In this document: positions 4,235 to 50,543 of the stretch, piece after piece
Position numbering within the stretch: the stretch's first letter is position 1
How the letters are laid out: the number at the start of each line of letters is the position of its first letter
NCBI GenBank assembly: GCA_027046625.1
Contig: JALTXX010000003.1
Coordinates: forward strand, 5,147 to 69,146
Length of the DNA stretch: 64,000 nt
Direction of reading: 5' to 3'
Source of the DNA: Candidatus Micrarchaeota archaeon
GTDB lineage: Archaea > Iainarchaeota > Iainarchaeia > JAADDC01
Program-made: the position numbers and the translations under genes
Notes under the pieces: generated by a model
Databases searched by the model: none
Told to the model about the DNA's origin: nothing
The model's input: only the letters and a program-made list of their open reading frames with translations

Positions 4235-4420
4235 ATGGATAACAAGGAGGTGGCTCTTGAACTGTTGAAGATGTACCTCCAACATCATAGAGGCGAGATC
4301 TCCCTAGAAGAGCTCGTAGAGGCCTATCTTGCAATTGTTGAAATGTTGGAAACTCCTATACCAAAGGAAAAGTCCCCGGACTACTCAGCTCCTCTATCCC
4401 TTTCAGATAAAGAGGCCTAG
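4235..4420 (+). CDS. small hypothetical protein
   Basis: 61-aa ORF between orc1 and a convergent gene; no motif. Confidence 0.2.
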   Translation: MDNKEVALELLKMYLQHHRGEISLEELVEAYLAIVEMLETPIPKEKSPDYSAPLSLSDKEA

Positions 4421-5145
4421 CCTTCTACGGGATATACGATCATTCCCCTTTCCCTTGTAATCTCTATGGGATGTATGTTGGTAGAGTGGTTAGTGCCTCT
4501 CATCTTTCTTATGTGGAGAGTTCTTGTGGTGGGGCCTCCGCCTCCCAGATACGAAAGTATGATTACCCCATCAGCTACAAACTCCTCTACTCCATACTTA
4601 GAATAGAAGTTGGAGTTTTCTGGAATTTCAGATGTTATAATAGAGGTTAACCCACTTTTCATGAGGGCATAACTCATCTTTAAAATAGCCTTTCTAATAT
4701 CGTTCTCGCTTTCGTATCTAAATCCTAGTGCAGGCAACGAATCTACAGCCACTCTTTTGGCTCCCATTTCTTTGGCAGCTTTTATAATCTCCACGAGCAG
4801 CCTATCTATGTCAAAACCGGTTTCTGGCATGTGGTACACTTCTTCTGAAGGAAGTCCAACCTTTGCAATGGAGGCATCTATGATGCGTATCATATCCTTT
4901 TCTTCCTCCCTCTTGAAGTCCCACCCAAATTGTAGCATATCTTCCCTTATAAGGTTGGGCCTCTCATCGAGGGTTACCAAAATACCGGGTTCGTCGTAGT
5001 CTACGGCACCTTTATATATAAACTGGCTGCAGAAGATGGTTTTACCGGTACCCGTAGCTCCTGAAACGAGTATCATCCTTCTCCGGGGAAAACCCCCTTC
5101 TATGAGCTCGTCCAATCCCTCTATACCGGTTGGTACTCTGTCCAT
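4417..5145 (-). CDS. RecA-superfamily ATPase, RadA paralog / KaiC-like (aRadC type)
   Basis: Single RecA core of 242 aa: GIEGLDELIEGGFP, Walker A GATGTGKT, Walker B ILSYLGGGG-like region. Confidence 0.6.
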   Translation of the reverse strand: MDRVPTGIEGLDELIEGGFPRRRMILVSGATGTGKTIFCSQFIYKGAVDYDEPGILVTLDERPNLIREDMLQFGWDFKREEEKDMIRIIDASIAKVGLPSEEVYHMPETGFDIDRLLVEIIKAAKEMGAKRVAVDSLPALGFRYESENDIRKAILKMSYALMKSGLTSIITSEIPENSNFYSKYGVEEFVADGVIILSYLGGGGPTTRTLHIRKMRGTNHSTNIHPIEITRERGMIVYPVEG

Positions 5146-10622: not shown

Positions 10623-11379
10623 ACTAAAAGAGATAAGGAGGGTAGAAGCTGAAGTTTTGGTAACAGGGTTGCCCGGATTTGGACGTGTGGGACACGTTGC
10701 AGCAAATTATTTGGTAGATAAGCTAAACCTAGAGCCTGTAGCAATACTACATTCACATGTGTTTCCCCATGCTGTGGTGGTGGATGAAAAAGGGGTGTTA
10801 AGATTATTGAACAACACATTTTACTATGTGGAAGCAGAAAGACCCTTCATTCTTCTTACGGGGGATGTACAACCCTCCATAGATCCCAACGCATCCCCAG
10901 AGCCCCATCATCTTTATGCAAAATTTGTACTGGATTATGCTGAAGAGAGGGGCGTAAAGGAGATATACACTATGGCAGGGATGGATATTGGCCCCTCAAG
11001 GTTTACAGAGGGAACAGGTACGGTGTGCGCAGCTACCCATGAAGATATTATAAAATCATTCACAGATATGGGCTGTGATATAGACAGGGGAGGCACCATT
11101 ACGGGTATTGCAGGACTCTTGCTTGGTTATGCAAAGGAAAGGGGAATGAGAGGCGCCTGTATTATGGGCAAAACCTCTGGACAAATGACAAACCATGGGG
11201 ATCCTGGTGCAGCAGCAGAGGTATTAAAACTTATGCAGAAGATTCTCGGCTTCTCAGTGGATTTAAAGGATTTAGAAGAGGCCAACAAAGAGATAGAGAA
11301 AGTAGTGAGAGGACTCATGACCGGCCCGCCAAAAGTCTCTGAAGAGAAGAAGAGAGAGAAGCTAGACTATATACAGTGA
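10615..11379 (+). CDS. PAC2-family (proteasome assembly chaperone-like, COG1938) protein
   Basis: 254 aa, [19 protein letters not shown]-terminus typical of PAC2/DUF75. Follows aIF2-alpha and Nop10 as in most archaea. Confidence 0.6.
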
Positions 11380-11776
11380 TAGGTGTGAGAAAGAGTACTA
11401 ATAACCTGTTTTCTAATAGAAGGAGAAGGGAAACCGCTATGGGTGTAGTAAAGATGGGAAACGAGAGAGAGGAAAGTAAAATAGCTGTGTAATTGTCTCC
11501 TCCTAGAAGTATGTGCAGGAACGATGCAGCAATACCTTTTATAAGATGAGTTTCCAGTCTCTCTAGATCTCCCCTTCTGGCATACTCGTTATAGGCGGAG
11601 GATGTGAATACAGAGAGGGATAACACAAGATTTGGAATGATGGTAGAGGGTGAAATAATTTTTAGGGAAGCAAAAAGCGACAAATATCCTACTACTAATA
11701 GGGAGAAGGCGTAACTTGATACTAGTACTATCACACACTGTGATAGAACGGACGGTTTTAAATGTATGGTGCCCAT
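11315..11776 (-). CDS. hypothetical membrane protein (possibly spurious)
   Basis: 153-aa hydrophobic ORF filling the 380-nt spacer between two + genes; no motif. Confidence 0.2.
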   Translation of the reverse strand: MGTIHLKPSVLSQCVIVLVSSYAFSLLVVGYLSLFASLKIISPSTIIPNLVLSLSVFTSSAYNEYARRGDLERLETHLIKGIAASFLHILLGGDNYTAILLSSLSFPIFTTPIAVSLLLLLENRLLVLFLTPITVYSLASLSSSLQRLLAGRS

Positions 11777-12991
11777 TACCTTAGTGTGATAGAATTAGCG
11801 TATACCACAATATTGGGAATATTCTTGCTTATATCCCTTTTGTACTATGTTATCACGGCTGCAAGCCTATCAATACAGAGGAAATACTATCCATCTAGTA
11901 GAAAAAAGCCCTTTGTAAGCGTCCATGTACCTGTATACAACGATATTATAGTTGGAAGGTTGTTGGATGCCCTAAAGAGGCAAAAGTATGAGCATTTTGA
12001 GGTTATCGTGGTGGATGATAGCGATGATCCTGAAACGAGACGTGTTATTGATGTATATGAAAAGGATCCAAGGATTAAGGTTATAAGAAGGGATAGGAGG
12101 GAGGGATATAAGGCAGGAGCCCTTAATGAGGCATTAAAACATTCAAAAGGAGAAATTATAGTGGTATTTGACTCAGATTTTGTACCTAGGGATAACTTCT
12201 TAGAGGAAGTAGTAAAACCCTTTGAAGACCCCTCTATTTCCTATGTTCAGGCCAGATGGGACTTTGAGAACCTTGATGAAAACCTTGTAACTGTGTTTGC
12301 AGGTGTTCCACTCCTTATGTATCACTATCTCTTCTATCCTCTTATGGACAGATTTGGAGTTCCCTATCTATCAGGTACTGCTATGGCCATAAGAAAGAAG
12401 GCACTTGAAGATGTGGGAGGTTGGAGGAACGGTACCCTAACAGAGGATGGGGACATGAGCATGAGACTTATTATGAAGGGTTACAGGGGAGCCTACCTCC
12501 ATTCTCCAGAAACACCTAGCCAGCTTCCGAGGGGATTGAAAACATTTTGCGTGCAGCAGCAGCGTTGGAGTACAGGAATGTTAGAAGCGTTATACCTTAA
12601 TGGGAAGGCCCTTATCTATTCTAAGAAGATAAACTTCACACAAAAGATGCTAGCCCTCGTTATACCCCTTCTAAACCTTATATTTCCTGTCGTTGCAATT
12701 ATTGTGGTAGTGTCCTTGTATCTATGGGGTGTAGGAGTTTCTCCTATCACACCTGAGATGGCACCCATCTTATTGTTGTTAGGTTCTGGTTATGTGGTGG
12801 CCGGTCTTGTATCCCTTTATAAGAAGGGAAAACTACACCTTTTCCCTCATTTTATCCTCTCTACCTACATTGTGGGACCGGTGTTAGCGTTCTACAATAC
12901 CTTAGCCATGGTAAAGAGAGCAATAACCGGTCACTTACACTGGGTGGTAACTCCCAAGGAGGTTAGAGCAGCAAATCCAACATACAGGTAA
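11762..12991 (+). CDS. membrane-bound family-2 glycosyltransferase (processive synthase-like)
   Basis: GT2 motifs VVDDSDD, FDSDF, QQRWSTG, with N- and C-terminal TM segments. Confidence 0.7.
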   Translation: MYGAHYLSVIELAYTTILGIFLLISLLYYVITAASLSIQRKYYPSSRKKPFVSVHVPVYNDIIVGRLLDALKRQKYEHFEVIVVDDSDDPETRRVIDVYEKDPRIKVIRRDRREGYKAGALNEALKHSKGEIIVVFDSDFVPRDNFLEEVVKPFEDPSISYVQARWDFENLDENLVTVFAGVPLLMYHYLFYPLMDRFGVPYLSGTAMAIRKKALEDVGGWRNGTLTEDGDMSMRLIMKGYRGAYLHSPETPSQLPRGLKTFCVQQQRWSTGMLEALYLNGKALIYSKKINFTQKMLALVIPLLNLIFPVVAIIVVVSLYLWGVGVSPITPEMAPILLLLGSGYVVAGLVSLYKKGKLHLFPHFILSTYIVGPVLAFYNTLAMVKRAITGHLHWVVTPKEVRAANPTYR

Positions 12992-13901
12992 GTGCATTTG
13001 GGCATGCGCCTGTAAGGAGAAGCACTGATAACTTTCCAAGGGTAAAGAACATGTAAGAAAGGAATAGCATAATGGGTACCAAGGACATAGCATCTACCAT
13101 TTTCCCTGTTCTAATTAGAGCACCTACAGCACCTGCTAATACTGCTTGAATGAGTACATACAAGGTTAGAATGTTATTTATAACCTCCGAGGTGGCAACC
13201 TTCTGTTTAAAAAACTCCTCTGATTGCATGCCACTTTTCACCATGTCCTCTCCAATTTTCATCATGAAGAGCTGTATACCCATGGACATACCCACTATTA
13301 GAGGTCCAAGCACAGCTGCAGACACAAATATAAACATAAACTGCATAGAAACTCTAGCCTTTCTCTCTTTCCTGATCTGATAAGTCTTCCTAATGTCTTC
13401 TGCAATCTCATCCAGTATATCTGCTACCCTTCCACCCGTTCTTAACGAATCTGTAATAATGAGGACCGCCTTTCTCAAGAAATCGGAATCTATCCTCATG
13501 GATAAAGAGTTTAGAGCTGCAATGAAGGATTTACCAGCCTCAATCTCCTTTAGCATAAGGGAGAACTGCTTTGATAGCTCTCCATACTCAGATGCTATCA
13601 CCTCTTTTATGGCTACCTCAAAGGTACCCCCAGATCTCAACACGGCTGCCATCTCCCTTAGTGCATCACCCAGATTTTCCTCGATGCTCTCCACAATCTG
13701 CTTTCCTTTTTTGTAGGGTGTAAACACAATAAACATTCCCACAATAAGTATGACAATACCGAACAGATAGTAGCCAGTGAGTATGAGAGCTATTCCTATA
13801 AGAGAGACCACACTACCAAGGGTTAGTATAAAACGGGCGTTTAGCTTGGGAAACGCTAGCTTTACCACATTCTCATAGTGTTTTATCCATTCAGCTGGCA
13901 A
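12963..13901 (-). CDS. T2SS-F domain membrane platform protein, TadC-like
   Basis: One GspF/TadBC domain (cytoplasmic helical bundle plus 3 TM); 312 aa. Confidence 0.6.
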   Translation of the reverse strand: MPAEWIKHYENVVKLAFPKLNARFILTLGSVVSLIGIALILTGYYLFGIVILIVGMFIVFTPYKKGKQIVESIEENLGDALREMAAVLRSGGTFEVAIKEVIASEYGELSKQFSLMLKEIEAGKSFIAALNSLSMRIDSDFLRKAVLIITDSLRTGGRVADILDEIAEDIRKTYQIRKERKARVSMQFMFIFVSAAVLGPLIVGMSMGIQLFMMKIGEDMVKSGMQSEEFFKQKVATSEVINNILTLYVLIQAVLAGAVGALIRTGKMVDAMSLVPIMLFLSYMFFTLGKLSVLLLTGACPNALTCMLDLLL

Positions 13902-15039
13902 GGGGATCAGACCTCCTTACAAAGATTGCTAGCACCAACATAAAGAAAGGAATGGCAACCAGGTATATAACCCTCAATGTCTCTGGTGGCATGCCAAAAG
14001 CTTGTAGAATGTTGTTCTGCATGGGGGCGTTGCCTATACCTGCTAGCATGGATAAAATAGCTGGAAACACAATACCTGCAAACATAAATACAACTCCGAT
14101 CATGTTTAGCTTTTCAGCAAATTCCCTTACTCTGTTTCTCTGTTCAAATGACAAGTCCTCTGCGATACGCTTTATAGCGTCTGAAAGGTTTCCACCAACT
14201 CGAAGTGATCTTAGGATCTGGGATATGGCCAGCCTTACCCATTTTGACCTGGATCTTAGTGCGAAACTCTCAAGAGCCTCTTCCGTTGTTTTTCCCTGGG
14301 AAATTTCTCTTAGTGTTCTTTTAAATTCCTCTGAGAGTACCTTATACCTTGCAGCTGCAATAGACTCCATGGCATTGTAGAGGCTCATACCAGAGCGGAT
14401 AACAACCGCCAAATGTCTAAGGGCAAAGGGTAGCTCCTTTTCCATAACGGAGGCTCTTTCATTGGTTTTCATGCGGGGGTAGGAAAGAGCAGCCCCAAAT
14501 GCTATTATAAAAACTATTAGAGGTGTTAGAAACGTGTTTAAAGCTGCAACAATAGGGTTGGAAGCGCTAATTACCATGAGTAATCCAACCGCAACAAGGG
14601 AAAGCAATGCCATAACGCTGGCAAATACAAGGGATATGATGACGTACTGTCTTGCTGTAAGCTTTATATTAGCTGCGTAGAGCTCAAAATCCAATTTTCT
14701 TAGCAATTCATTATTTGCCAGCTTTTCTAGTAGTCTATCATAGAGATTTTTGTACTTTTCATAGATTTTTCCAAAAAATCTTATGATATCCGAGGGGTGT
14801 TCAGTGAGAGGGACCGTAATCCTTGACATAATGGATCGTACAGTTATAATGTTGTGCACCGCAGTCTCGGCCTTTTCCTCTTTTTCCTCCATAACCTCTA
14901 CATTCTGCTTCTCTCTGTATTTCTCTATAATCTTCTCCACTACTTCCTCCGGAAGTAATTCATCTATCTGAACGCTTTTCTTTTCCTTCTTCTTTTTCCT
15001 CCTAAAAGCGTCCTTTATGCTGTCTAGGATTTTTGCCAC
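13891..15039 (-). CDS. T2SS-F domain membrane platform protein, TadB-like
   Basis: Single GspF-type domain with a K/E-rich N-terminal extension; 382 aa; overlaps neighbours on both sides. Confidence 0.6.
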   Translation of the reverse strand: MAKILDSIKDAFRRKKKKEKKSVQIDELLPEEVVEKIIEKYREKQNVEVMEEKEEKAETAVHNIITVRSIMSRITVPLTEHPSDIIRFFGKIYEKYKNLYDRLLEKLANNELLRKLDFELYAANIKLTARQYVIISLVFASVMALLSLVAVGLLMVISASNPIVAALNTFLTPLIVFIIAFGAALSYPRMKTNERASVMEKELPFALRHLAVVIRSGMSLYNAMESIAAARYKVLSEEFKRTLREISQGKTTEEALESFALRSRSKWVRLAISQILRSLRVGGNLSDAIKRIAEDLSFEQRNRVREFAEKLNMIGVVFMFAGIVFPAILSMLAGIGNAPMQNNILQAFGMPPETLRVIYLVAIPFFMLVLAIFVRRSDPLAS

Positions 15040-16610
15040 CGCTTCTTCCCCTCCTCAAAGTATCTCTGAAGCTCCTTTTTCAGACTTTTCATACCCTTTA
15101 TATTTCTCTTTACTAGCTCTCTAATGAAGTCTGCCCTTCTCTGTATTTCGTCCTCCAGATCAGAAATCTCGAGGGCGGTATAGTCCTTTAGAGTATTAAG
15201 ATACGCTACATGAGAGTCTACCTGTATCATAGTGTCCTCTTTGGGCTCCCACACAAAAATTGTCTTTATTTTAGCCTTTTCATCCTCCTTTATTACCTCT
15301 GCAATCTCTGTAACCCTTCTTATGCTTCCCTTTCTTCTATCGTGGATCCTGTGTTGCACTATAATGAAGTCCAGCGCTCCCACCATGATCTCTGGCACGT
15401 TCATGGGAGGGGATGTGATACGTATGATGGTTTCCTTTGCAGAGTTTGCGTGTATGGTGCCCATGCTCCCATCATGACCTGTGTTCATGGCGGTAAACAT
15501 GGTGGCAGCCTCTTTGTGTCTGACCTCACCTACTATAATTCTATCCGGCCTCATTCTAAGAGCATTTTTCACCAGTACGTCCATATCAACCTCTCCAGTA
15601 CCCTCTATGCTTGGTGGCCTGGTTTCTAATCTTACCCAGTGTTCTAGAGGGAGGTTAAGCTCTGCGGTATCCTCTATGCTTATAACCCTCTCGTAGGCAG
15701 GTATGAAAGCAGCCATTACGTTGAGGGTGGTGGTTTTACCGGAGCCTGTGCTACCCGCTATGAGTATATTTGCTGGTTTTGCACCCATTCCATCCACTGC
15801 CAGCCACATAAAGGCAGCAATATCAGGGTTGAACGTGCCAAACCTAATGAGATCTATGATGGTGTAAGGATCTTTTCTGAACTTTCTTATGGTAATGGTG
15901 GAACCATCTACAGAAATGGGGGGTATGGTAGCGTTAACTCTGCTTCCGTCCGGCAGTCTTGCATCAAGAAGCGGATTTTGTATATCGATTCTTCTCCCCA
16001 CATCCCTTGCGATCTTGTCTATAATGTCTCTTATCTCCTTATCATCTACAAAGACGATGTTGGTAAGCATCATACCATATTTCCTGTGAAACACGTATAC
16101 AGGCCTGTTAGGACCTATTACCATGATCTCTTCCAACTCGTCGTCATAGATAAGGTAATCTATGAGACCATATCCGATCATTTCTCTTACTACAATGTCT
16201 GCGTAGTATTCCTTTCTTCCTGGCGGTACACCAAGCTCAGGGAAATTCTCTATAATCTCAATAACCTTTCTTCTGTAGAAGTTCCTTCTTGCCTCGTAAT
16301 CTGTGAAGGTAGTTCCTCTAAGGGATACGAGGCGGGTTGTAGCATCCTTTAGAATGTTTATAATCTTTCTTTCGCTCTCTGTGGGCTTAGGAATAGGAAC
16401 CTTGTAGATTAGAAGGGGCTCTCCTTCCCTTTTTACAATCTTTACATCACCATACTCTGCAATTACCACCTCGGGTGCTTTAGCCTCCTCTTTTTCGGGG
16501 GCAATCTCTTCATGCTCTAAGGACTGTTTTTCCTGCTTCTTCTGGGTTGACTTGGCAGCCTCTATGAGCTCCTCTAAGTATCCCATCCCTTTTAGTAGGC
16601 TATTCTGCAA
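15024..16610 (-). CDS. type IV filament assembly ATPase (FlaI/CpaF/TadA family)
   Basis: Walker A AGSTGSGKTT, Asp box, His box, and GEVR motif; 528 aa. Confidence 0.8.
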   Translation of the reverse strand: MQNSLLKGMGYLEELIEAAKSTQKKQEKQSLEHEEIAPEKEEAKAPEVVIAEYGDVKIVKREGEPLLIYKVPIPKPTESERKIINILKDATTRLVSLRGTTFTDYEARRNFYRRKVIEIIENFPELGVPPGRKEYYADIVVREMIGYGLIDYLIYDDELEEIMVIGPNRPVYVFHRKYGMMLTNIVFVDDKEIRDIIDKIARDVGRRIDIQNPLLDARLPDGSRVNATIPPISVDGSTITIRKFRKDPYTIIDLIRFGTFNPDIAAFMWLAVDGMGAKPANILIAGSTGSGKTTTLNVMAAFIPAYERVISIEDTAELNLPLEHWVRLETRPPSIEGTGEVDMDVLVKNALRMRPDRIIVGEVRHKEAATMFTAMNTGHDGSMGTIHANSAKETIIRITSPPMNVPEIMVGALDFIIVQHRIHDRRKGSIRRVTEIAEVIKEDEKAKIKTIFVWEPKEDTMIQVDSHVAYLNTLKDYTALEISDLEDEIQRRADFIRELVKRNIKGMKSLKKELQRYFEEGKKRWQKS

Positions 16611-16624
16611 TAAAAGGTTGACGC

Positions 16625-17797
16625 ATGGTAAGTGTGATCAGTCCTCGGTTATGTATAAGATGTAAGGGGAGGTTGTGGTGCGGACTGAGCAAATGCCCTA
16701 TTCTAGAGGCAAAACGGCTGATAAAAGGGGTAAACAAAAGGGAATTGTCCGGCTATTCTCCGCCCTCCCTCCTAATAGGGTGGAGGGGATACCCAGAGGT
16801 AAACGTTACACCTATATTATCTGAGGAGCGATCAGATATAGCAGAGAACCCTTCTTATTGGGCTGGAAAGCTCTCTATTGAGGAGATACTAGATTTGAGA
16901 ATGAATATGGGTGGTGGCTCCCAGAGAAGACATGTTAAAAATATTCCAGAGGATACTATCTTGGATATAGCTCTTAGCAAGAAACCTATAGCTCTGGATG
17001 TAACCTTTAAACAACCACCAAAGAGTAGTGTAACATTTTCCAACCTATTTCCTCCCATTGGGTTTAGGGGAGAATTGGAACGTTTAGAAATAGCGGAGAA
17101 TCCCAAAATAGACAAGAGGGCAGAAAGCCTTTACTATGACGAAGTAAAGGCTAAAGATGCAGTTATATACCTGTATGAAAAAGGAAGGGATGTGTATGAG
17201 CTCTCCCGTTATCTATCATCAGGGATTTTTGGTAAGGAGAAACGACTAGTGCCTACAAGGTGGTCCATAACAGCGGTTGACGACATAATCTCGAATTATC
17301 TCCTTGAAAAAGTATCTACATTCCCTCCTATAGGCAGGATAGAGTTGTATACCTCTTCTCTCTATGATAACCACTTCTTTATCTTGTTTATTCCCGGTCC
17401 CTGGGCCTTTGAGCTTGTGGAGGCCTGGGCCCCAAAATCCTTCTGGAGTAGGGGAAAGGAGATTATAGTATCAGACTACGAGTTCGGAAGAAAAAGAAAG
17501 AACTACGCCTCTAATGTGGGTGGATCTTACTACGCCTCTAAGCTTGCAGTACTGGAAAAACTCTACGAGAAGAGGAGGGTGGCATCTGTTCTTATCTTAA
17601 GAGAAGTCAGGGAAGGGTATTATGCGCCTTTAGGGGTGTGGCAGGTAAGGGAGAATGTGAGACATGCACTAAGAAGAAACCCCCTCTACTTTGACAGCCT
17701 GAGAGATGCTTACAACTATATACTTTCTCGTAGTAGGGTAAAGAAGTGGAAGGAATACAGCATTCTTCTCAAAGGTGTTCAACAAAGAATAATTTAA
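16625..17797 (+). CDS. Nre-family (COG1602-like) protein with N-terminal Cys4 knuckle; putative DNA-repair-associated
   Basis: N-terminus CIRCKGRLWCGLSKCP followed by a conserved approx. 350-aa body; assignment from memory of the Nre N-terminal pattern. Confidence 0.35.
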   Translation: MVSVISPRLCIRCKGRLWCGLSKCPILEAKRLIKGVNKRELSGYSPPSLLIGWRGYPEVNVTPILSEERSDIAENPSYWAGKLSIEEILDLRMNMGGGSQRRHVKNIPEDTILDIALSKKPIALDVTFKQPPKSSVTFSNLFPPIGFRGELERLEIAENPKIDKRAESLYYDEVKAKDAVIYLYEKGRDVYELSRYLSSGIFGKEKRLVPTRWSITAVDDIISNYLLEKVSTFPPIGRIELYTSSLYDNHFFILFIPGPWAFELVEAWAPKSFWSRGKEIIVSDYEFGRKRKNYASNVGGSYYASKLAVLEKLYEKRRVASVLILREVREGYYAPLGVWQVRENVRHALRRNPLYFDSLRDAYNYILSRSRVKKWKEYSILLKGVQQRII

Positions 17798-18031
17798 GGG
17801 CAGCGGGCCGTAGGCCGCCTTCTGTATTGAGACGGGATTAGACTTAGCGGGCATTCGCCCTTGCACCCAACCCGGACCGTTTCAACCACACCACACATCA
17901 TGGGTAGGGGTACCTCATCCCTCCGTGTGGTGGGTGTCGTTTCTGTTCCCGGGAGTCCCTCACGGGACTTGTTTTTAGCGGGTGGGCGGACCTTCCTCAG
18001 GAGACCCCCGAGACCCGTCTGCCCGCTGCCC
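17798..18031 (-). ncRNA. rnpB: structured ncRNA, probably a miniaturised (type T-like) RNase P RNA
   Basis: GC-rich (approx. 62%) island in an approx. 45% GC context. Perfect 11-bp terminal helix (GGGCAGCGGGC / GCCCGCUGCCC). Minus-strand reading contains GAGGAAGGUCCGCCC (close to CR-I GAGGAAAGUCCGGGC) and ACAGAAAC (CR-IV-like), plus a candidate P2 pairing GACGGG / CCCGUC. No protein coding potential. SRP RNA was considered but no helix-8 AGCA/GNRA signature was found. Confidence 0.45.
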
Positions 18032-18077
18032 ATATCGGTGTAGGTGACACTCATCACCACTCAGAGGAAATATCTCC

Positions 18078-18542
18078 TCATCTCCATATACATAGGGTGA
18101 GATTTGTTTTATTACAGTTTCTCGGATCGTTGTTGGTAATACACAGGGAGAAATCCTTCTTGAATAGTATGTCTGCATCGATGGGACAAGAAGTGGAACA
18201 TCCTATGTTATTTGCTATAATACTGCCTTCTATAGCGCAGTTAAGCGTTTCTGGCATGAAATCTTTCTTATTTGCACTAAAGAAGGATTTTATGCATCCT
18301 GGAATCCTAAAATCCCCAATTTTACACGCCCACACTCCGTCGTCTACAGCGAGCTTAAAGATGGTGTGATAAGCAGCCAGCTCAATCCTTCTATACAGAA
18401 GATCCTCCGAAACAGCAGATGTAACACCGTACGCTGCTGTAAGGGCAAAGTGGGAGGCTGCTATAAACAACAACAGTGCCACAAGTACATCCATGGTAAA
18501 TATCTGACCTTTCAACAGCTCACCTCCCTGGATACAATCCAA
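18078..18542 (-). CDS. pilin-like protein with class III signal peptide (pseudopilin, Cys-rich C-domain)
   Basis: N-terminus ...LKG/QIFTMDVLVALLLFIAA (Q+1, D+5, hydrophobic helix); last gene of the pilin operon. Confidence 0.45.
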   Translation of the reverse strand: MDCIQGGELLKGQIFTMDVLVALLLFIAASHFALTAAYGVTSAVSEDLLYRRIELAAYHTIFKLAVDDGVWACKIGDFRIPGCIKSFFSANKKDFMPETLNCAIEGSIIANNIGCSTSCPIDADILFKKDFSLCITNNDPRNCNKTNLTLCIWR

Positions 18543-18778
18543 ATAAAGATACCTTCTCCGCTTGTATACCTAATACCTCCCTCCTGTATATTGTCTATGA
18601 CGACTCCTCCCACATCTGAGGCAATGTCCATGAAGTAGCTGTTTGCATCTGTTAGGTAGGAACATATGGCCACCCTCGTAGCATCCCTCACCTCTTCCCA
18701 GTCTGGTGCCACTGCTCCAATAAAGGTTGTGAGCAGGAAGAGGGCTAACACCATATCTACGGAGAACACACCCCTCAT
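18512..18778 (-). CDS. pilin-like protein (class III signal peptide)
   Basis: MRG/VFSVDMVLALFLLTTF N-terminus, 88 aa. Confidence 0.45.
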   Translation of the reverse strand: MRGVFSVDMVLALFLLTTFIGAVAPDWEEVRDATRVAICSYLTDANSYFMDIASDVGGVVIDNIQEGGIRYTSGEGIFIWIVSREVSC

Positions 18779-19056
18779 TATCCCGCCCTCACATTGATAC
18801 CTCTTGCTCTTAGCCTATCAATGAGCTCATTCGGACCTCTCAATACTAATCCTCTATCATAATAGAACCTTTCTACCTCATAAATCTTCATGCTTTCCTG
18901 TTCGAGGGCTACCTCCTCCCTTATCAGTACAGGAGTAGCCTTTATGAGAGCCCCTCCACCCTCTAGCGTGTCTAGCATGATGTTTATGGATATAAGAGCT
19001 CCTAGCACTACTGCAAGCACAAGTATAAGGAACTCTCCCCATACCTGGCCTTTCAT
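18778..19056 (-). CDS. pilin-like protein (class III signal peptide)
   Basis: MKG/QVWGEFLILVLAVVLG: Q+1, E+5; 92 aa. Confidence 0.5.
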   Translation of the reverse strand: MKGQVWGEFLILVLAVVLGALISINIMLDTLEGGGALIKATPVLIREEVALEQESMKIYEVERFYYDRGLVLRGPNELIDRLRARGINVRAG

Positions 19057-19436
19057 GGTATCCCACTCACCTCTCCGCCACTTATTTTTATCCTTGTAAA
19101 GGTGTTTATGGTGGGTCCGGAGGTAAATACCCTGTCAAGCGTTACAATACACTCGCCCCCGCTACACAGATCCGTTGTAACCCTTGCCTCTAACCTCCTT
19201 AGGTCTATTGTGGTGTTTGGCGGTACCCACACACCCATCTTTACCATACCATCTGATACATCCGTAAATTCCCCAGCTGCCTTTACCCTGAGTAGACTCA
19301 CCCTTGCAGAGAGAACATTCCTTATATCGTCCTGCATGTTAATAACATCGTTTATATGGATGGTTGTGAGAGCTATGTACCCTCCCAGCAACACCATTAC
19401 TAGGATACCATACTCTATGGCTATAATACCTTTCAC
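19053..19436 (-). CDS. TadE/Flp-like pseudopilin
   Basis: MKG/IIAIEYGILVMVLLGG matches the bacterial Flp/TadE motif G/xxxxEY-G-hydrophobic; 127 aa. Confidence 0.6.
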   Translation of the reverse strand: MKGIIAIEYGILVMVLLGGYIALTTIHINDVINMQDDIRNVLSARVSLLRVKAAGEFTDVSDGMVKMGVWVPPNTTIDLRRLEARVTTDLCSGGECIVTLDRVFTSGPTINTFTRIKISGGEVSGIP

Positions 19437-19594
19437 TTTAGTCCCTCCAGTATGACGTCCTTCACGTCAAGCGCTTTTAGTATCTCTGTTTTCATGGCGT
19501 TGGCAAGTGTAAATAGTCCCCCGGCAGCTATAAGAGCCAGAAGGACTCCAATACCCACCATGATAAGATACTCTATATGAACCTGAGATCTCAT
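19433..19594 (-). CDS. Flp-type major pilin (53 aa; not on ORF track)
   Basis: Own translation: MRSQVHIEYLIMVGIGVLLALIAAGGLFTLANAMKTEILKALDVKDVILEGLK. Q+1, E+5, Y+6; ATGA overlaps on both sides. Confidence 0.6.
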   Translation of the reverse strand: MRSQVHIEYLIMVGIGVLLALIAAGGLFTLANAMKTEILKALDVKDVILEGLK

Positions 19595-19743
19595 GGCAAC
19601 CCCCTAAACACAGACACTTTCACTTTATTTTCTACTGTTGCCACAATGGCCGCCATCCCCGTTATGGCACCGGCTATGATGAGCACTATCACTAACATGC
19701 CCATGGAGGACAGCATGTACTCTGTTGCGGTCTGGCTCTTCAT
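19591..19743 (-). CDS. Flp-type major pilin (50 aa; not on ORF track)
   Basis: Own translation: MKSQTATEYMLSSMGMLVIVLIIAGAITGMAAIVATVENKVKVSVFRGLP. Q+1, E+5, Y+6; first gene of the 6-gene pilin operon. Confidence 0.6.
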   Translation of the reverse strand: MKSQTATEYMLSSMGMLVIVLIIAGAITGMAAIVATVENKVKVSVFRGLP

Positions 19744-19791
19744 CCGAACAAATAATGGCATCTAAGGTTATATAGATTAGCATGGAAGAGT

Positions 19792-24273: not shown

Positions 24274-25668
24274 GTGTTGGATCCCCTTCAATATCTTCGG
24301 ATAGTAGGCAACGAATACCATATCCAACGTCCCCGCCTATCAGAGGAAGAACGAACATTGCTGAACATCCTATCTATGCTTATTGAGGGAAGAACGTACC
24401 TTGAGGCGGTAAAAACATTACCCATCAGCCCAAGGGATGACTTCGAAGAACTTATGAGGGATTTCTTGCGGGGAGTAGACCCTAATAAGTTATACTCTTT
24501 GGACGAGCTTTTAAGGATGGGGGAGGAGCTGTACGAAACACTCAAGGTATTGGGTGTAGACAATGAGTATATCTCCCTTTACAGTGTGTTTGACGCTATA
24601 GGTCTAGGAGAGGTAACATTCTATCTCTATGATGAAAAGGTGGAGGAGGTGATGGTGAACGGATACAGAAATCCTGTATTTGTGTACAGGGCTGCCATGG
24701 GAAGCCTGAGAACCAATGTGGTTCCAGGAGGTAGCTTGGATAGATGGGTTAAAAGATTGAGCGGAAGAAGCAGAGAGAAGATCATAGATACCTCCCTGGA
24801 TGATATGAGGATCAGTATAGTAAGGGAGCCTCTATCAGATGAGGGACCAGCCATAACTATAAGAAAGCATAGAAAGGTACTTCTAGATCTTGTAGAGCTT
24901 ATGAGAAGAAACACCATAACTCCAGAGTTAGTATCCTATCTGTGGCTCCTTCTTGAAGGGTTGGAGGTGTCCCCCTTCAATATGATAGTGGCCGGCAACA
25001 CAGGTGGCGGTAAAACCACTACGCTAAACGCACTGTTATATCTTGTTCCTCTTGATGAGCGGATCGTTGTGATAGAGGACACCAGAGAAATTGTGGTACC
25101 CCACCCCAACAGGGTTTACCTTACAACAGAAGGAACAGACAATAGCTTAATGGACCTCCTTATAGCCTCTCTTCGTATGAGACCAGACAGAATTGTGGTG
25201 GGTGAGGTGAGGGGTAAGGAGGCAGTCACCCTATTGGCTGCTATGAACGTGGGCCATAGGGCCATGGGAACCATACATGCAAACTCCGCAGCTGATACAC
25301 TAAACAGGCTTGAGAATCCCCCTATGAATGTCCCTGAGAGTATGTTAGGCGCTCTTAACCTCGTGGTGGTTCAGCATCGTATAAGAACTCCAAGGGGAAC
25401 CATAAGAAGAGTTACAGAGGTGGCAGAGCTGTACAACATAGGAGACAGAATAAATATGGGTGTAACCTTTTCATGGAACCCGGACACTGATAAAATAGAG
25501 AGGACAACCATACCCTCTCACCTAATAGACAAGATGGCAGAATATACACACATTCCAAAGAAGCGGCTGTTGGAGGAACTAGAAAGAAGAGAATCCTTCC
25601 TTGATGGGGTTGTTAAAAGAAATGGCAAGCCTGAAGATATACTAAGGTATCAGGGTGACATTGTATGA
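24274..25668 (+). CDS. second FlaI/CpaF-family type IV filament ATPase
   Basis: Walker A VAGNTGGGKTTTLN, Asp/His boxes, GEVRGKEA motif; 464 aa. Confidence 0.75.
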   Translation: MLDPLQYLRIVGNEYHIQRPRLSEEERTLLNILSMLIEGRTYLEAVKTLPISPRDDFEELMRDFLRGVDPNKLYSLDELLRMGEELYETLKVLGVDNEYISLYSVFDAIGLGEVTFYLYDEKVEEVMVNGYRNPVFVYRAAMGSLRTNVVPGGSLDRWVKRLSGRSREKIIDTSLDDMRISIVREPLSDEGPAITIRKHRKVLLDLVELMRRNTITPELVSYLWLLLEGLEVSPFNMIVAGNTGGGKTTTLNALLYLVPLDERIVVIEDTREIVVPHPNRVYLTTEGTDNSLMDLLIASLRMRPDRIVVGEVRGKEAVTLLAAMNVGHRAMGTIHANSAADTLNRLENPPMNVPESMLGALNLVVVQHRIRTPRGTIRRVTEVAELYNIGDRINMGVTFSWNPDTDKIERTTIPSHLIDKMAEYTHIPKKRLLEELERRESFLDGVVKRNGKPEDILRYQGDIV

Positions 25669-30758: not shown

Positions 30759-31014
30759 CTCTGTACATCTCTAATCTACCATACACGCATCTATATCCTG
30801 ATATGCATTGTCCATAGAAGGATACACCCTTTATTTCGCCACTTTCATCCAAAATCCTATATAAACACCCTTTTTCCAAAGCTTTTACAGGCAAAAAGGT
30901 GGCGCAAACCTTGTATAATCTTCCAAAATCTTTCAAATCCTCTATACTGCTTTCTACAGGTTCTATTAGTGAGAGAAGAAGTAAGGCAATGAGGAACACA
31001 CCCCACCTCCACAC
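30724..31014 (-). CDS. small secreted Cys-containing protein (hypothetical)
   Basis: Signal-peptide-like N-terminus MWRWGVFLIALLLLSLIEPVES; 96 aa. Confidence 0.3.
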   Translation of the reverse strand: MWRWGVFLIALLLLSLIEPVESSIEDLKDFGRLYKVCATFLPVKALEKGCLYRILDESGEIKGVSFYGQCISGYRCVYGRLEMYRGEKELVILSDA

Positions 31015-31841
31015 ACAATAAAAAGGGCCAAACTACATATAACACCCAGTGTGATGAAGGGTATGAAAGGGATGGAAAGATGAGCCCTTATACTATTTAT
31101 TCCCATCTCCTTCAACCTCTTCACATCTTCCTCTGTCAGCCCATCCGCTCCTATGTTATGGACAGGAAGGATTTCACCTTTCTGAATCTTTAATAGTGTA
31201 TTAATGTTTAGATCATACCTTTTACCCTCCTTATCTATTACTTCTGCTGGTATAACCCCCTCTTTAACTGTTTCCTCGTACCTAAGAAGCTTTTTTATCC
31301 TAAGGAGATAAATAACTGCAGAAAGCAGAACTATGGCAAGAAAGAAGTTCAGATTAAAGCTAACTACTCCAAGGGGAAGAAACAGCAAGTAATACCTCTC
31401 TGGCAGAAACACCCATGCCAGTATTCCAAGAAAAGGATGTATGGAGAAGGGAATGGCGAGAAGCACAGATTTCTTCATGTGACTTAACAGCTCATGACTT
31501 TTCTTTCTCAACACAACAAACATACCGTACAGCCCAGACAGTAATATGGCAAAAGTAAGAGAAAGAAGGGATATCGGCACTCCAAACAATGTATAGGGTA
31601 TTCCAGCTCCGATAATAAGAAGTATCCATACATCTCCCAGCGCAAATGCGCCCATAGCATAGAGTAGTACCGCTATAGCGGCTGTAACAATCAGACTATA
31701 TAGGAATGTTTCGTGGGAAACACCAAGAAGCACAGCCACCCCATAGGAAATGTATACCAGCTCATCCGGAATTTCCCGTTTCTTTATATCCTCCAAAGAG
31801 AAATAAAAGAGAAGAGGTAACAATATCAAAACTTCCCACAT
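30966..31841 (-). CDS. class III signal peptidase / prepilin peptidase (A24 family; PibD/TadV/EppA-like)
   Basis: N-terminal TM then acidic loop (SLEDIKKREIPDEL), second catalytic Asp in FALGDVW, multi-TM core, plus a C-terminal soluble extension. Confidence 0.6.
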   Translation of the reverse strand: MWEVLILLPLLFYFSLEDIKKREIPDELVYISYGVAVLLGVSHETFLYSLIVTAAIAVLLYAMGAFALGDVWILLIIGAGIPYTLFGVPISLLSLTFAILLSGLYGMFVVLRKKSHELLSHMKKSVLLAIPFSIHPFLGILAWVFLPERYYLLFLPLGVVSFNLNFFLAIVLLSAVIYLLRIKKLLRYEETVKEGVIPAEVIDKEGKRYDLNINTLLKIQKGEILPVHNIGADGLTEEDVKRLKEMGINSIRAHLSIPFIPFITLGVICSLALFIVCGGGVCSSLPYFFSH

Positions 31842-31862: not shown

Positions 31863-32051
31863 CTATCCGCCAAGTTGGTTTAGCTGCTGATTTATCTCTT
31901 TTTGTAGTGTAGATGTAGTTTGTTGAATAGATTGACCTGCTGTGGTGGCACCCTGCTGCCCTGCCTGGAGCAGACTGTTGGCCAATATTAGTACAACTAT
32001 AATTACTCCACCCAGCAGCAACATGTACTCAAATGTACCCTGGCTTCTCAT
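31863..32051 (-). CDS. Flp-type pilin (start moved to internal Met; track ORF ends at 32102 with a GTG start)
   Basis: MRS/QGTFEYMLLLGGVIIVVLIL, nearly identical head to the 36825 pilin; Q-rich C-terminal tail. Confidence 0.5.
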   Translation of the reverse strand: MRSQGTFEYMLLLGGVIIVVLILANSLLQAGQQGATTAGQSIQQTTSTLQKEINQQLNQLGG

Positions 32052-32181: not shown

Positions 32182-33682
<1,501 letters not shown>

Positions 33683-36824: not shown

Positions 36825-36965
36825 ATGAGAGGACAGGGTACCTTCGAGTACATGCTCCTTCTACTTGCGGTAATCGTAGTGGTTGTTATCCTCTTTTCTA
36901 ATATGTTCAGCGGAGCAAGGGAGGTAAAGGGTGGCATTGAGGAAGTTGCCTCCCAGCTTAGGTAA
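36825..36965 (+). CDS. Flp-type major pilin (46 aa; not on ORF track)
   Basis: Own translation: MRGQGTFEYMLLLLAVIVVVVILFSNMFSGAREVKGGIEEVASQLR. Q+1, E+5, Y+6. Confidence 0.6.
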   Translation: MRGQGTFEYMLLLLAVIVVVVILFSNMFSGAREVKGGIEEVASQLR

Positions 36966-36996: not shown

Positions 36997-39513
36997 GTGA
37001 GGCTTCAAACATCCTTTGAGTATCTCCTCACGGCGGGAGCAGCCCTACTAATTACGCTGGCTGTAGGAACCCCAGTCATCCAATCCCTCTCAAATATCCA
37101 GACCACAACAGCCCTTCCTCCCACTCCTCTCGTTGAAGGAAAAAGATATATCACCCTTGCCTATGTAGATCCACCAAAGGGAACTACAAACACATTGTTT
37201 ACCTTCTACTGTGCTGCAAAGAACGCAAGAACCATCTATTTGTATGTGGACGGAAGCTTTATTCATAGCTGTAGCGATATATCCTACTGTCAAGCAAAGA
37301 AAAGAGGATTCGCTGGCTCCGCCTCTGGAAGGGAACACCTTTTCAAGTGTAGAGTTTATACAAAGAATGGAATAGTAGAGGAGTACACCATCCCCTTCTA
37401 TGTTTACAACAGGGATGTAGAGCCTCCCAGCGTAAGTGTATCGGTTAACCCCAATTCGGGAGATCCATCCACCGTGTTTAACATTCTTTGTACAGCTACC
37501 GATAACATAGGCGTTAAAACCATCAAGATATTTGTTGACGGACTGTTAAAGCAAACATGTAACGATTCTACCACATGCCAGTACTCTGGTGCCTTTTCGG
37601 TGGGAACTCATACTGCACAATGTGAAGCCGCAGATCTATCAGATAACACAAACTCCGCCTCCGCTACCTTTACAGTAACAGAGGCTGGTTCTACCCCTGG
37701 CGGAGGGACCTCCCCAGGCGGCGGTGGAGGAGGCGGAGGAACCACCCCTAGTAATAATAACCCACCGGGAGGAACTCCCCCAGGTGGAGGCACCTCAGGT
37801 TCAAAACCTAAAATAAGTTGTAGCTTGCAGAATGATTTTAGTGGTAAAGTAACTGTAATATGTACTGCTGTAGTTCCGGATAAAAGTAAGTTTATTGCAG
37901 ATTTTGATGTAAAGGAAGCATCCCTTCTCAATGAGGGCTATTATATCCATACGCAGTTTCCTGGAAACAACTTGGAGCTTTGTAGAGGTATACAGGGATT
38001 CCCCTCATATTGCAAGAAGTATCCAGCACCCTATACCTTTACACCATCAGATAACTTTGTAAAGCAGGCCTTTGACACAGAGAAAGGAGTTAGGGTAGAG
38101 GTAGCATACGGAAGTTATTTGGCAACAGTAATGCTAACATATGATAGGGATGAACTTGTGTGTAGAGGATTGACCTGGCAAAATGGCAAAGGATATGTCC
38201 GCCTGACTTTAATAGCGCAGAATTCATCTGCAATAGTGTCTAATGAAAGTGTAACCAAAGAAACTATTATGCTACCCAACACGTTAGGCAATTGTCCCAT
38301 AAGAACCGACGCGCAGCTTCTATATTATGTGGATGTAGACGGAGATTTCTCATCCGATGGCATATATACAGCATGTAAGGGATCCACGGATGATGGTCTG
38401 AAACAGATAGCTGTGAGCACCTTCCCTTTGTATAGCGTTTATGATGGAGAGTACAGGGTTTGTAACACTAAAAGATCCATGACTAGAGGATGGTACAAGG
38501 ATGGATTCTATGAGAGCCTTTCTGCTAAAGGGAAACAAAACGTAGATAAATCTATCCGTATAGTACCCATACCATACTTTATAGATAGTGGTAAGGTAGT
38601 GGAGGGTGCTTGTGGAAGGTTTATACCTAAGAGCATGCTGGTAACCCCTGATGGAAGACCAACCACAGGCAAGGTATTTGTAAGGTGCCAATATGAGTCC
38701 TTAACCGGTGGTAGAGTGGAAAGAACATTCACATTCGATGGAACGTTGATATGTAAAGCCCTAGGAGGTAGCAACTGTACCTCATCGCCGAGAGGACCCA
38801 CTCCTCCATCCGCACCACCTCCGGGCTCAAGCCCTACAACCGGAGGGTCTTTTAGTGTAGCCCTTGACGTATCCCCACAAACAGGCTACATGGGAGACAG
38901 ATTCAGAGTAACATGTACCACCATAAAGGATGCAACCATTACAAAGATAGAAGCTAGGGGCGCATGGGGCTACTACAGAGAAGACCTCACAAGAGGGATG
39001 GTGTGCGACATAAACCCAAACTATCCATTCCTTCAGACATGTATCGTAAACTACTACCCCCCAGACATAGGAACCTACACTTTAACCTGTGTAGCTGACT
39101 ACCAAGGCCAAACAGCCTCCGACACCAAAACCATAATCGTTCAAGAGAGGCCACCCAATGTTTCTCTGTCTGTATATCCAGAAACCGTAGAGTACCCGGG
39201 TAGTATCCGTGCAGAGTGTATAGTTTCTGCCACACCACGTACACATGGGTATAGAGTGGATGACGTAAGGGTGTACTTTTCGATAGATAATGGTGTTGCA
39301 CGCTATGCATATTGTACTAAGGAATCTCCGGACATGAAAAGATGCAGATATTATACTACTACATTTACTACATTACTGAGTGTGGGTAGCCATACGGTTT
39401 CATGCATAGCCATTGGACCTGAAGGTGGTAGAGCAACCGACTATGCCACAGTAGTGGTGGAACCTCCTCCAGAGTATAGACGACCCTCCTATAGGAGAGT
39501 ACCCTCTATATGA
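36997..39513 (+). CDS. giant pilin-headed surface protein / putative pilus tip adhesin
   Basis: N-terminus MRL/QTSFEYLLTAGAALLITLAV has the same pilin head. Then 838 aa with many paired Cys, beta-rich repeats, and a G/P/T/S/N low-complexity linker (PGGGTSPGGGGGGGGTTPSNNNPPGGTPPGGGTSGS). Confidence 0.55.
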   Translation: MRLQTSFEYLLTAGAALLITLAVGTPVIQSLSNIQTTTALPPTPLVEGKRYITLAYVDPPKGTTNTLFTFYCAAKNARTIYLYVDGSFIHSCSDISYCQAKKRGFAGSASGREHLFKCRVYTKNGIVEEYTIPFYVYNRDVEPPSVSVSVNPNSGDPSTVFNILCTATDNIGVKTIKIFVDGLLKQTCNDSTTCQYSGAFSVGTHTAQCEAADLSDNTNSASATFTVTEAGSTPGGGTSPGGGGGGGGTTPSNNNPPGGTPPGGGTSGSKPKISCSLQNDFSGKVTVICTAVVPDKSKFIADFDVKEASLLNEGYYIHTQFPGNNLELCRGIQGFPSYCKKYPAPYTFTPSDNFVKQAFDTEKGVRVEVAYGSYLATVMLTYDRDELVCRGLTWQNGKGYVRLTLIAQNSSAIVSNESVTKETIMLPNTLGNCPIRTDAQLLYYVDVDGDFSSDGIYTACKGSTDDGLKQIAVSTFPLYSVYDGEYRVCNTKRSMTRGWYKDGFYESLSAKGKQNVDKSIRIVPIPYFIDSGKVVEGACGRFIPKSMLVTPDGRPTTGKVFVRCQYESLTGGRVERTFTFDGTLICKALGGSNCTSSPRGPTPPSAPPPGSSPTTGGSFSVALDVSPQTGYMGDRFRVTCTTIKDATITKIEARGAWGYYREDLTRGMVCDINPNYPFLQTCIVNYYPPDIGTYTLTCVADYQGQTASDTKTIIVQERPPNVSLSVYPETVEYPGSIRAECIVSATPRTHGYRVDDVRVYFSIDNGVARYAYCTKESPDMKRCRYYTTTFTTLLSVGSHTVSCIAIGPEGGRATDYATVVVEPPPEYRRPSYRRVPSI

Positions 39514-50524: not shown

Positions 50525-50543
50525 GTAGAATAAAGAATATCAG

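Follow-up and report, generated by a model that had tools for sequence, protein, structure and literature searches.

A probable Epd-like type IV pilus core in a thermophilic DPANN-affiliated archaeon

What kind of type IV filament is encoded by an archaeal locus that combines one assembly ATPase with two half-sized platform proteins and a set of very small pilin-like genes? The question arises in a 64,000-nucleotide stretch of DNA deposited as Candidatus Micrarchaeota archaeon (GCA_027046625.1; contig JALTXX010000003.1, positions 5,147–69,146 of the forward strand), hereafter called the window. An initial annotation, made from the sequence letters, described the locus as an archaeal counterpart of the bacterial tight adherence (Tad)/Flp pilus with bacterial-style gene splitting. 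The nearest relatives of the window are hydrothermal metagenome-assembled genomes (MAGs) that their depositors labelled Candidatus Iainarchaeum or Micrarchaeota, and which belong to the DPANN (Diapherotrites, Parvarchaeota, Aenigmarchaeota, Nanoarchaeota and Nanohaloarchaeota) archaea. We propose, with a probability of about 0.85, that the locus of this thermophilic, DPANN-affiliated archaeon encodes the core of a type IV pilus of the archaeal Epd-like kind (‘clade 1’ or ‘System 1’). This assignment draws on architecture and on published descriptions of Epd-like systems.

Filament machines of this kind have been delineated in three studies. Makarova et al. 2016 (PMC4858521) described an archaeal clade 1 that consists of an ATPase, a pair of TadC components together with major pilins. 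Denise et al. 2019 (PMC6668835) placed Epd-like pili and Tad in one clade, characterized by two single-T2SSF platform genes derived by fission and by short pilins, and traced the origin of Tad to a transfer out of Archaea into Bacteria. Sivabalasarma and Albers 2026 (10.64898/2026.04.22.720090) defined ‘System 1’ by its two platform genes and reported it from Methanococcales, Methanobacteriales, Thermococcales and DPANN. The gene splitting that the initial annotation held to be evolutionarily informative is real, but its novelty was overstated, because a split platform is a published hallmark of this archaeal class (PMC4858521; PMC6668835; 10.64898/2026.04.22.720090). The locus shows the testable features of Epd-like or System 1 pili, lacks several features of bacterial Tad and clearly departs from the archaellum.

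The assembly ATPase and the split platform

All of the open reading frames (ORFs) on which the initial annotation drew are present, and its description of the core as an ATPase and two separate membrane proteins (P1 and P2) with one GspF-type stretch each agrees with the Pfam assignments (Table 1). The ATPase and P1 genes overlap by 16 nucleotides (nt) and the P1 and P2 genes by 11 nt, so the three look like one operon.

Table 1. Components of the putative pilus system and related genes in the window. A slash in a head motif marks the predicted cleavage site; aa, amino acids.
Feature	Position	Strand	Basis
Assembly ATPase, CpaF/EpdL type	15024–16610	−	Pfam T2SSE, 165 bits
Platform protein P1, 382 aa	13891–15039	−	Single Pfam T2SSF domain, 78 bits
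Platform protein P2, 312 aa	12963–13901	−	Single Pfam T2SSF domain, 65 bits
g1, 50-aa short pilin-like, MKS/QTATEY, no globular domain	19591–19743	−	50-aa orthologues in L003, L006, L010
g2, 53-aa short pilin-like, MRS/QVHIEY	19433–19594	−	Orthologues 51–57% identical, all 53 aa
g3, 127-aa minor-pilin-like, MKG/IIAIEYGIL	19053–19436	−	Head motif, conservation
g4, 92-aa minor-pilin-like, MKG/QVWGEF	18778–19056	−	Orthologues in L006, L010, L011
g5, 88-aa minor-pilin-like, MRG/VFSVDM	18512–18778	−	Orthologues in L003, L006, L010, L011, L030
g6, 145-aa Cys-rich minor-pilin-like, (TTG)KG/QIFTMD	18078–18515	−	Orthologues 35–43% identical in L003, L006
Class III signal (prepilin) peptidase, family A24	30966–31841	−	Pfam Peptidase_A24, 33 bits (cut-off 26.5); weak Arc_PepC_II match
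62-aa stand-alone short pilin, MRS/QGTFEYMLLLGG, candidate major pilin	31863–32051	−	Class_IIIsignal, 24.5 bits (cut-off 23.7)
46-aa stand-alone short pilin, MRG/QGTFEYMLLLL, candidate major pilin	36825–36965	+	Class_IIIsignal, 32.7 bits (cut-off 23.7)
838-aa pilin-headed protein, candidate pilus-borne adhesin	36997–39513	+	MRL/QTSFEY head (L at −1), weak Big_7 match
Candidate second pseudopilin-like operon: 127 aa (MRG/FVSVEV), 78 aa (MRG/LFFSTIY), 279 aa	40666–42115	−	Motif scan and ORFs
Second T2SSE ATPase, orphan	24274–25668	+	Pfam, 131 bits; FlaI model 232 bits, below cut-off

The ATPase ORF spans 528 aa from a TTG codon at 16610, and the deposited protein (P0001) spans 520 aa from an ATG at 16586. 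Its Walker A motif (GSTGSGKTT), Asp box, Walker B motif and His box (TGHDGSMGTIHAN) are intact in the translation. Scored against the sequences of structures in the PDB, it matched Caulobacter CpaF at 282 bits, Archaeoglobus afGspE at 275 bits and Sulfolobus FlaI at 213 bits. The alignment with CpaF covers residues 125–455 only (42–48% identity to bacterial CpaF proteins in this core) and that with afGspE covers residues 57–520, which indicates that the N- and C-terminal extensions are archaeal in type. Reciprocal scoring was asymmetric: three bacterial CpaFs reached 243–295 bits against the window ATPase and its split-platform archaeal relatives, but only 123–152 bits against FlaI, afGspE and the second ATPase of the window, no better than against VirB11 and TrbB. 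For the window ATPase, the reciprocal scores were 243–280 bits. These scores uphold the initial reading, in which an archaeal type IV pilus core has a CpaF-like motor and is related to bacterial Tad. In a crude neighbour-joining (NJ) tree of 19 taxa based on Kimura distances, the window ATPase falls in a clade with ATPases from split-platform loci of Methanobrevibacter, Methanosphaera, Hadarchaeota, Hydrothermarchaeota and DPANN; the bootstrap value of this clade is 68% without, and 54% with, an Altiarchaeota sequence. A single scan of a genome collection gave results from Methanobacteriales, DPANN, Hadarchaeota and similar groups, and none from Methanococcus.

The same ATPase could be taken for the motor of an archaellum, in which FlaI, FlaJ and archaellins form a motility operon. 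Archaella belong to the same type IV filament superfamily, with a homologous ATPase, platform domain and class III signal processing, and FlaI is the best raw-score NCBIfam match of the window ATPase (315 bits); some homologues are labelled ‘flagellar protein FlaI’ by automatic annotation at the Joint Genome Institute, and others ‘CpaF family protein’ by the Prokaryotic Genome Annotation Pipeline (PGAP). However, 315 bits is far below the cut-off of 550, and FlaI and afGspE lie outside the NJ clade of the window ATPase, consistent with the expectation in the initial annotation that this protein would not group with archaellum FlaI. ArlJ is one two-domain protein, whereas the platform here is split and scores only 24–38 bits against ArlJ models (cut-offs 400–550). 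Archaellins, ArlF, ArlG, ArlH, ArlC, ArlD, ArlE and ArlX (FlaB, FlaF, FlaG, FlaH, FlaC/D/E and FlaX) were not found near the locus, and the pilins, at 50–150 aa, are far smaller than archaellins. An archaellum is thus an exceedingly improbable explanation of the locus.

By hhalign, P1 and P2 are paralogous to each other (probability 99.9); each has about four hydrophobic segments, and they correspond to different halves of the usual two-domain platform. Although both score far below the cut-off of the NCBIfam UpsF model, P1 maps to its positions 11–231 of 484, the N-terminal half of FlaJ/UpsF, and P2 maps to UpsF positions 266–464 of 484 and ArlJ positions 188–447 of 465, the C-terminal half. 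In hhalign comparisons, P1 was closer to TadC (76.0) than to TadB (69.2) and P2 was closer to TadB (78.6) than to TadC (63.7), each pair being reciprocal best; phmmer with P1 found bacterial TadC only. These alignments assign P1 as a TadC-like N-half and P2 as a TadB-like C-half, in agreement with Denise et al. 2019 (PMC6668835), who found the N-terminal domain to align with TadC and the C-terminal domain with TadB. The TadB/TadC split put forward initially therefore holds for the identity of the halves, but the gene order, ATPase–P1–P2, is the reverse of the bacterial cpaF–tadB–tadC arrangement (bacterial loci L088 and L089). About 27 archaeal loci, belonging to DPANN, Hadarchaeota and Hydrothermarchaeota, keep this order.

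In the Methanobrevibacter loci (L035–L069), a search at E ≤ 1e-5 revealed only a P1-like platform gene beside the ATPase. The two Methanosphaera loci (L073 and L074) and one from an uncultured Methanobacteriaceae (L071) have a P2-like gene on the opposite strand, at a distance of about 8 kb. A motif scan of all these loci gave no pilins with a Q-x3-EY head.

The six-gene operon and the short pilins

The six small genes (g1–g6), initially described as lying downstream of the core, are upstream of the ATPase operon and form a separate transcription unit; the RNase P RNA gene (17799–18030, minus strand) and the oppositely oriented nre gene (16625–17797) stand between the two. Stop and start codons within the operon overlap (ATGA, GTGA and TTGA). 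All six products begin with M-[KR]-[GS] (g6 from a TTG start codon), and after each head come about 20 hydrophobic residues without a charge. The MKGIIAIEYGIL gene, at first counted as the fourth, is third in transcription order and would be fourth only if counted from the low-coordinate end. Because a TATA-like tatataa (19768–19774) lies about 28 nt upstream of the g1 ATG at 19743, the 50-aa first gene would fit a leaderless transcript. A scan for sigma-70 promoters and intrinsic terminators returned background-level counts, the models being bacterial and not applicable to an archaeon; a perfect 12/12 sigma-70 consensus (TTGACA-16-TATAAT) at 14823–14850 on the plus strand, antisense within P1, is almost certainly fortuitous in an archaeon.

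The order of the whole region is kept in relatives: MscS, the six pilin genes, RNase P RNA, nre on the opposite strand, ATPase, P1, P2 and PAC2. The archaeal RNase P RNA is compact, measuring about 232–247 nt against a 288-position model (126–135 bits). Its gene shares a strand with the pilin operon and lies 47 nt downstream of the final gene there. As two relatives keep this position (8508–8753 in L003 and 8509–8755 in L006), the RNA may share a transcript with the operon or act as its terminator. At the other end of the core, P2 and PAC2 abut directly in these two relatives; in the window, a glycosyltransferase family 2 gene (11762–12991, plus strand) and a 153-aa membrane ORF (11315–11776, minus strand) are inserted between them. 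The membrane ORF, which carries an ‘LGGD’ motif, was considered as a mini-peptidase and rejected because it matches no family.

Six ORFs as small as these, and the 50- and 53-aa ones in particular, might be chance reading frames beside a three-gene core that alone is real. None of the six products exceeds a Pfam cut-off, and word-index homologue searches with g3 and with the 46-aa stand-alone pilin returned only the query itself, such proteins being too short and divergent for the method. Comparison with related MAGs argues strongly the other way and sustains the initial claim that these class III signal-like genes are genuine. At least five relatives (among them L003, L006, L010, L011 and L030), in which the ATPase is 72–77% identical, have the six genes in the same order with similar lengths, overlapping codons and the same heads. 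Protein identity of g1–g6 across relatives is only 24–57%, and nucleotide differences are most frequent at codon position 3 and least frequent at position 2 (for g2, 34–40 at position 3 versus 11–17 at position 2). Because low identity goes together with substitutions of coding type and with preserved order, length and head, we consider the 50- and 53-aa genes to be real and fast evolving. Both are called by other annotators, g1 in GCA_015521515.1, where g6 is also annotated as 145 aa, and g2 has profile matches in a representative library of 1.84 billion proteins (P0127, P0128 and P0132). Chance ORFs have, on this evidence, next to no probability.

Are the small proteins Flp- or TadE-type pilins, as first suggested? 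Their heads resemble those of Flp, but none of the six operon proteins matched Flp_Fap or TadE (Pfam, E ≤ 10) in a test in which bacterial Flp proteins from Ralstonia and Sinorhizobium scored 64–77 bits and TadE scored 62 bits. The ‘Flp/TadE head’ of g3 is therefore a motif resemblance (AIEYGIL versus AIEYGL in Flp) and not family membership. A single-sequence AlphaFold2 model of g3 has an N-terminal helix at residues 3–47 followed by beta strands; at a mean predicted local distance difference test score (pLDDT) of 48, only the helix is believable. The Pfam Class_IIIsignal family (PF04021) gave a weak match to g4 (11.6–12.8 bits, below the cut-off) and none to g1 and g2.

These results also bear on whether the locus is a bacterial Tad cluster that was recently transferred to an archaeon, or bacterial DNA contaminating the MAG. 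The CpaF core identity, the PGAP label and the likeness of AIEYGIL to the Flp motif are what a bacterial source would predict. By contrast, the nearest relatives are all archaeal and share the synteny, the locus is flanked by housekeeping genes of archaeal type (eIF2alpha, Nop10, PAC2, Nre, archaeal RNase P RNA, PCNA and primase) and the G+C content is uniform across the window. The Tad accessory set (TadZ/CpaE, RcpC/CpaB, the secretin RcpA/CpaC, TadD and TadG) is absent from the window ORFs scanned, in contrast to the bacterial comparison loci; the whole set is present in L088. With a reversed platform order, archaeal-type ATPase termini and pilins that fail the Flp_Fap and TadE models, a bacterial origin is very improbable, if a shade less so than an archaellum.

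Q4, E8 and Y9 (positions +1, +5 and +6 relative to the predicted cleavage site) are invariant in the short pilins of the window, g1 and g2 included. A profile built from the five Q-x3-EY heads of the window (alignment A1) retrieved 78 proteins from the 1.84-billion-protein library, 76 of them with a Q-x3-E-Y head; in 68 of these 76 the residue at −1 is G, A or S. Leaders are as short as three residues, and the lengths divide about evenly among proteins of up to 70 aa, 71–120 aa and more than 120 aa. One retrieved protein is named as a UPF0333 family member, and none resembles bacterial Flp. Among PDB sequences, the profile picked up nothing beyond transmembrane helices of the beta-1 adrenergic receptor, which it matched by chance.

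In many mesophilic DPANN MAGs (L013–L021, L031, L033, L034, L075, L081 and L085), two to four short pilin genes directly follow ATPase–P1–P2. These arrays encode pilins of 48–65 aa whose heads are KGQGALEYLLLIG or KAQVSFEYLLT; after them come genes for class III signal proteins of 110–190 aa. Compared with those loci, the lineage of the window has its pilin operon moved across nre and the RNase P RNA gene and its leaders shortened to three residues.

Further components elsewhere in the window

The system extends beyond the ATPase, platform and operon genes: the prepilin peptidase and the best candidates for the major pilins are encoded elsewhere in the window. These parts were found by a motif scan of the whole window followed by Pfam and ORF analysis. 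The A24 peptidase has candidate catalytic aspartates D18 (SLEDIKKREIP) and D70 (ALGDVW), at least six hydrophobic segments and a soluble insert; EppA, the dedicated prepilin peptidase of Epd systems (arCOG02300), has about nine transmembrane segments. Between its gene and the 16S rRNA gene lies the gene of the 62-aa stand-alone pilin (head MRS/QGTFEY). An orthologue of this pilin (P0129) stands alone among translation genes in a relative, and the adjacency of pilin and peptidase, when checked in a relative, is not kept. The 16S rRNA gene itself (32182–33682, minus strand) is solitary, with no adjacent 23S gene, and the peptidase and short pilin genes follow on the same strand from 131 nt past its 3′ end. 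At about 62%, the gene is much richer in G+C than the genome (43%), which indicates a thermophile.

The 46-aa stand-alone pilin is followed directly by the 838-aa protein, whose head is recognized by the short-pilin profile (P0125, 69 bits) and whose large body consists of Cys-rich Ig-like modules with Gly/Pro-rich linkers. Similar large Q-x3-EY proteins occur in other metagenomes (P0135, P0147, P0150, P0151 and P0154).

A pilin head on so large a protein is compatible with another function, in which short pseudopili of a bindosome-like, secretion or DNA-transfer system serve for the display or export of proteins or for DNA uptake. The 2026 census (10.64898/2026.04.22.720090) proposed that proteins bearing class III signals functionalize archaeal type IV filament machines, and the window ATPase scores 244 bits against the conjugal TadA model. 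That score is nevertheless below the cut-off of 373, as is the 186 bits obtained with the BasE model (cut-off 1000), and among the ORFs examined there were no class III signal substrate-binding proteins and no VirB4, VirD4 or Ced. The only characterized relative, the Epd pilus, mediates attachment (PMC6668835). We therefore regard such a machine as improbable, though it deserves more credence than an archaellum, a bacterial source or chance ORFs.

Several other genes in the window touch on filament assembly or the cell surface. The candidate second pseudopilin-like operon is the weakest part of the set; its products have no family matches, and its genes sit upstream of an Obg/YchF-like GTPase gene. 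In the NJ tree, the second T2SSE ATPase forms a loose group with FlaI and afGspE; its gene has no adjoining platform gene and precedes that of a PF01877 RNA-binding protein. A KaiC-like single-domain ATPase (4417–5145, minus strand; 248 bits) is encoded among replication genes (Cdc6, PCNA paralogues, PriX, primase and GINS). It was considered as an analogue of FlaH or TadZ and rejected on the grounds of its ArlH score (43.6 versus 215 bits in NCBIfam) and its replication-gene setting. A surface-glycan gene cluster (46451–51317) encodes a glycosyltransferase of family 4 (AglH-like), a polysaccharide flippase, a WecB/TagA-type transferase, a glycosyltransferase of family 1 and a pyruvyl-transferase-like protein; the products could glycosylate pilins or the surface (S) layer.

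Relation to known pili and a proposed pathway

Across these components, the closest likeness is to the Epd (EppA-dependent) pilus of Methanococcus maripaludis: one ATPase with two adjoining single-T2SSF genes, an A24 peptidase, very short major-type pilins without a globular domain alongside larger minor pilins, heads that mostly have Q at +1 and are of DUF361/UPF0333 type, and a candidate major pilin encoded away from the core. Occurrence of such systems in DPANN has already been reported. In Methanococcus, the major pilin EpdE is encoded outside the epd locus, and the stand-alone 62-aa pilin of the window recalls it. The window locus differs from Epd in being much more compact than the 11-gene epd cluster, with no adjacent accessory genes or FlaH-like ATPase, and in having its core and pilin operon split by nre and the RNase P RNA gene. 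Its leaders comprise only three residues, and its short pilins have the invariant E at +5 and Y at +6, as in Flp.

With bacterial Tad/Flp (type IVc) pili the locus has in common the ATPase core, a platform fissioned into TadB-like and TadC-like halves, pilins of about 50 aa with an x/XXXXEY head, a peptidase without a methyltransferase domain and a probably adhesive role. It differs in the order of the platform halves (N-half then C-half, versus tadB, which is C-half-like, then tadC, which is N-half-like), in the extensions of the ATPase, in the failure of its pilins to match the Flp families and in having Q at +1 and a −1 residue that is not strictly G. The Aap and Ups pili of Sulfolobales and the PilA–PilB–PilC system of Haloferax likewise combine an ATPase, a platform and class III signal pilins and are adhesive, but their platform is one two-domain protein and their pilins carry a globular domain at the C terminus, and the UpsF and BasE models fail here.

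Several observations weigh against an Epd-like assignment. Some of the pilins could depend on the second ATPase of the window instead. A partner ATPase of FlaH or TadZ type is not present next to the locus. The hhalign margins that separate the TadB-like from the TadC-like half are small. No protein of the six-gene operon reaches the Class_IIIsignal cut-off (best score 12.8 versus 23.7 bits). Finally, the NJ tree puts CpaF outside all archaeal ATPases, which group together with 80% bootstrap, and not as sister to the clade of the window. We treat this tree as uninformative on the relationship between Tad and Epd, and rely on the asymmetry of the cross-scores and on published maximum-likelihood trees.

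On the Epd-like reading, assembly would proceed as follows. Prepilins, whose class III signal peptide M-[KR]-[GSA] is very short, would insert into the membrane, and the A24 aspartyl peptidase would cut them just before the Q (or I or V) at +1. A hexameric CpaF/EpdL-like ATPase would dock on a heteromeric P1–P2 platform, and ATP hydrolysis would drive the mature pilins out of the membrane into a thin helical filament. The shaft would be built from helix-only pilins of 46–62 aa, as in Flp and EpdE; g1 and g2 are candidates, and especially the two stand-alone pilins. The g3–g6 products would serve as minor pilins, priming or capping the filament, and the 838-aa protein may be displayed on it as an adhesin. 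The pilus would likely serve adhesion to surfaces or to a host cell, possibly the attachment of a DPANN episymbiont to its host.

A bolder variant of this scheme is that the lineage of the window, with the wider DPANN clade that has ATPase–P1–P2–short-pilin loci, is the closest living archaeal relative of the Tad donor and that a single CpaF-like motor both extends and retracts a host-grappling pilus tipped by the 838-aa adhesin. The idea fits the invariant E at +5 and Y at +6 and the CpaF proteins scoring twice as high against the clade as against the other archaeal ATPases tested. We give it only an outside chance, marginally better than that of a secretion or DNA-transfer machine. If true, it would mean an episymbiotic archaeon with a retractile grappling filament whose motor is bifunctional, as in Caulobacter Tad.

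With the Epd-like reading, current understanding stays as it is, since the split platform, the short pilins and the connection to Tad have all been published. What the locus adds is a compact hydrothermal example of DPANN type to a pilus class already considered ancestral to bacterial Tad. Its parts list is minimal: an ATPase, two half-platforms, six plus two small pilins, a peptidase and a giant pilin-headed protein. Such a set could suit attempts to model the structure of a fissioned platform or to reconstitute one heterologously, and it provides a concrete candidate for the means by which small episymbiotic archaea may attach to their hosts.

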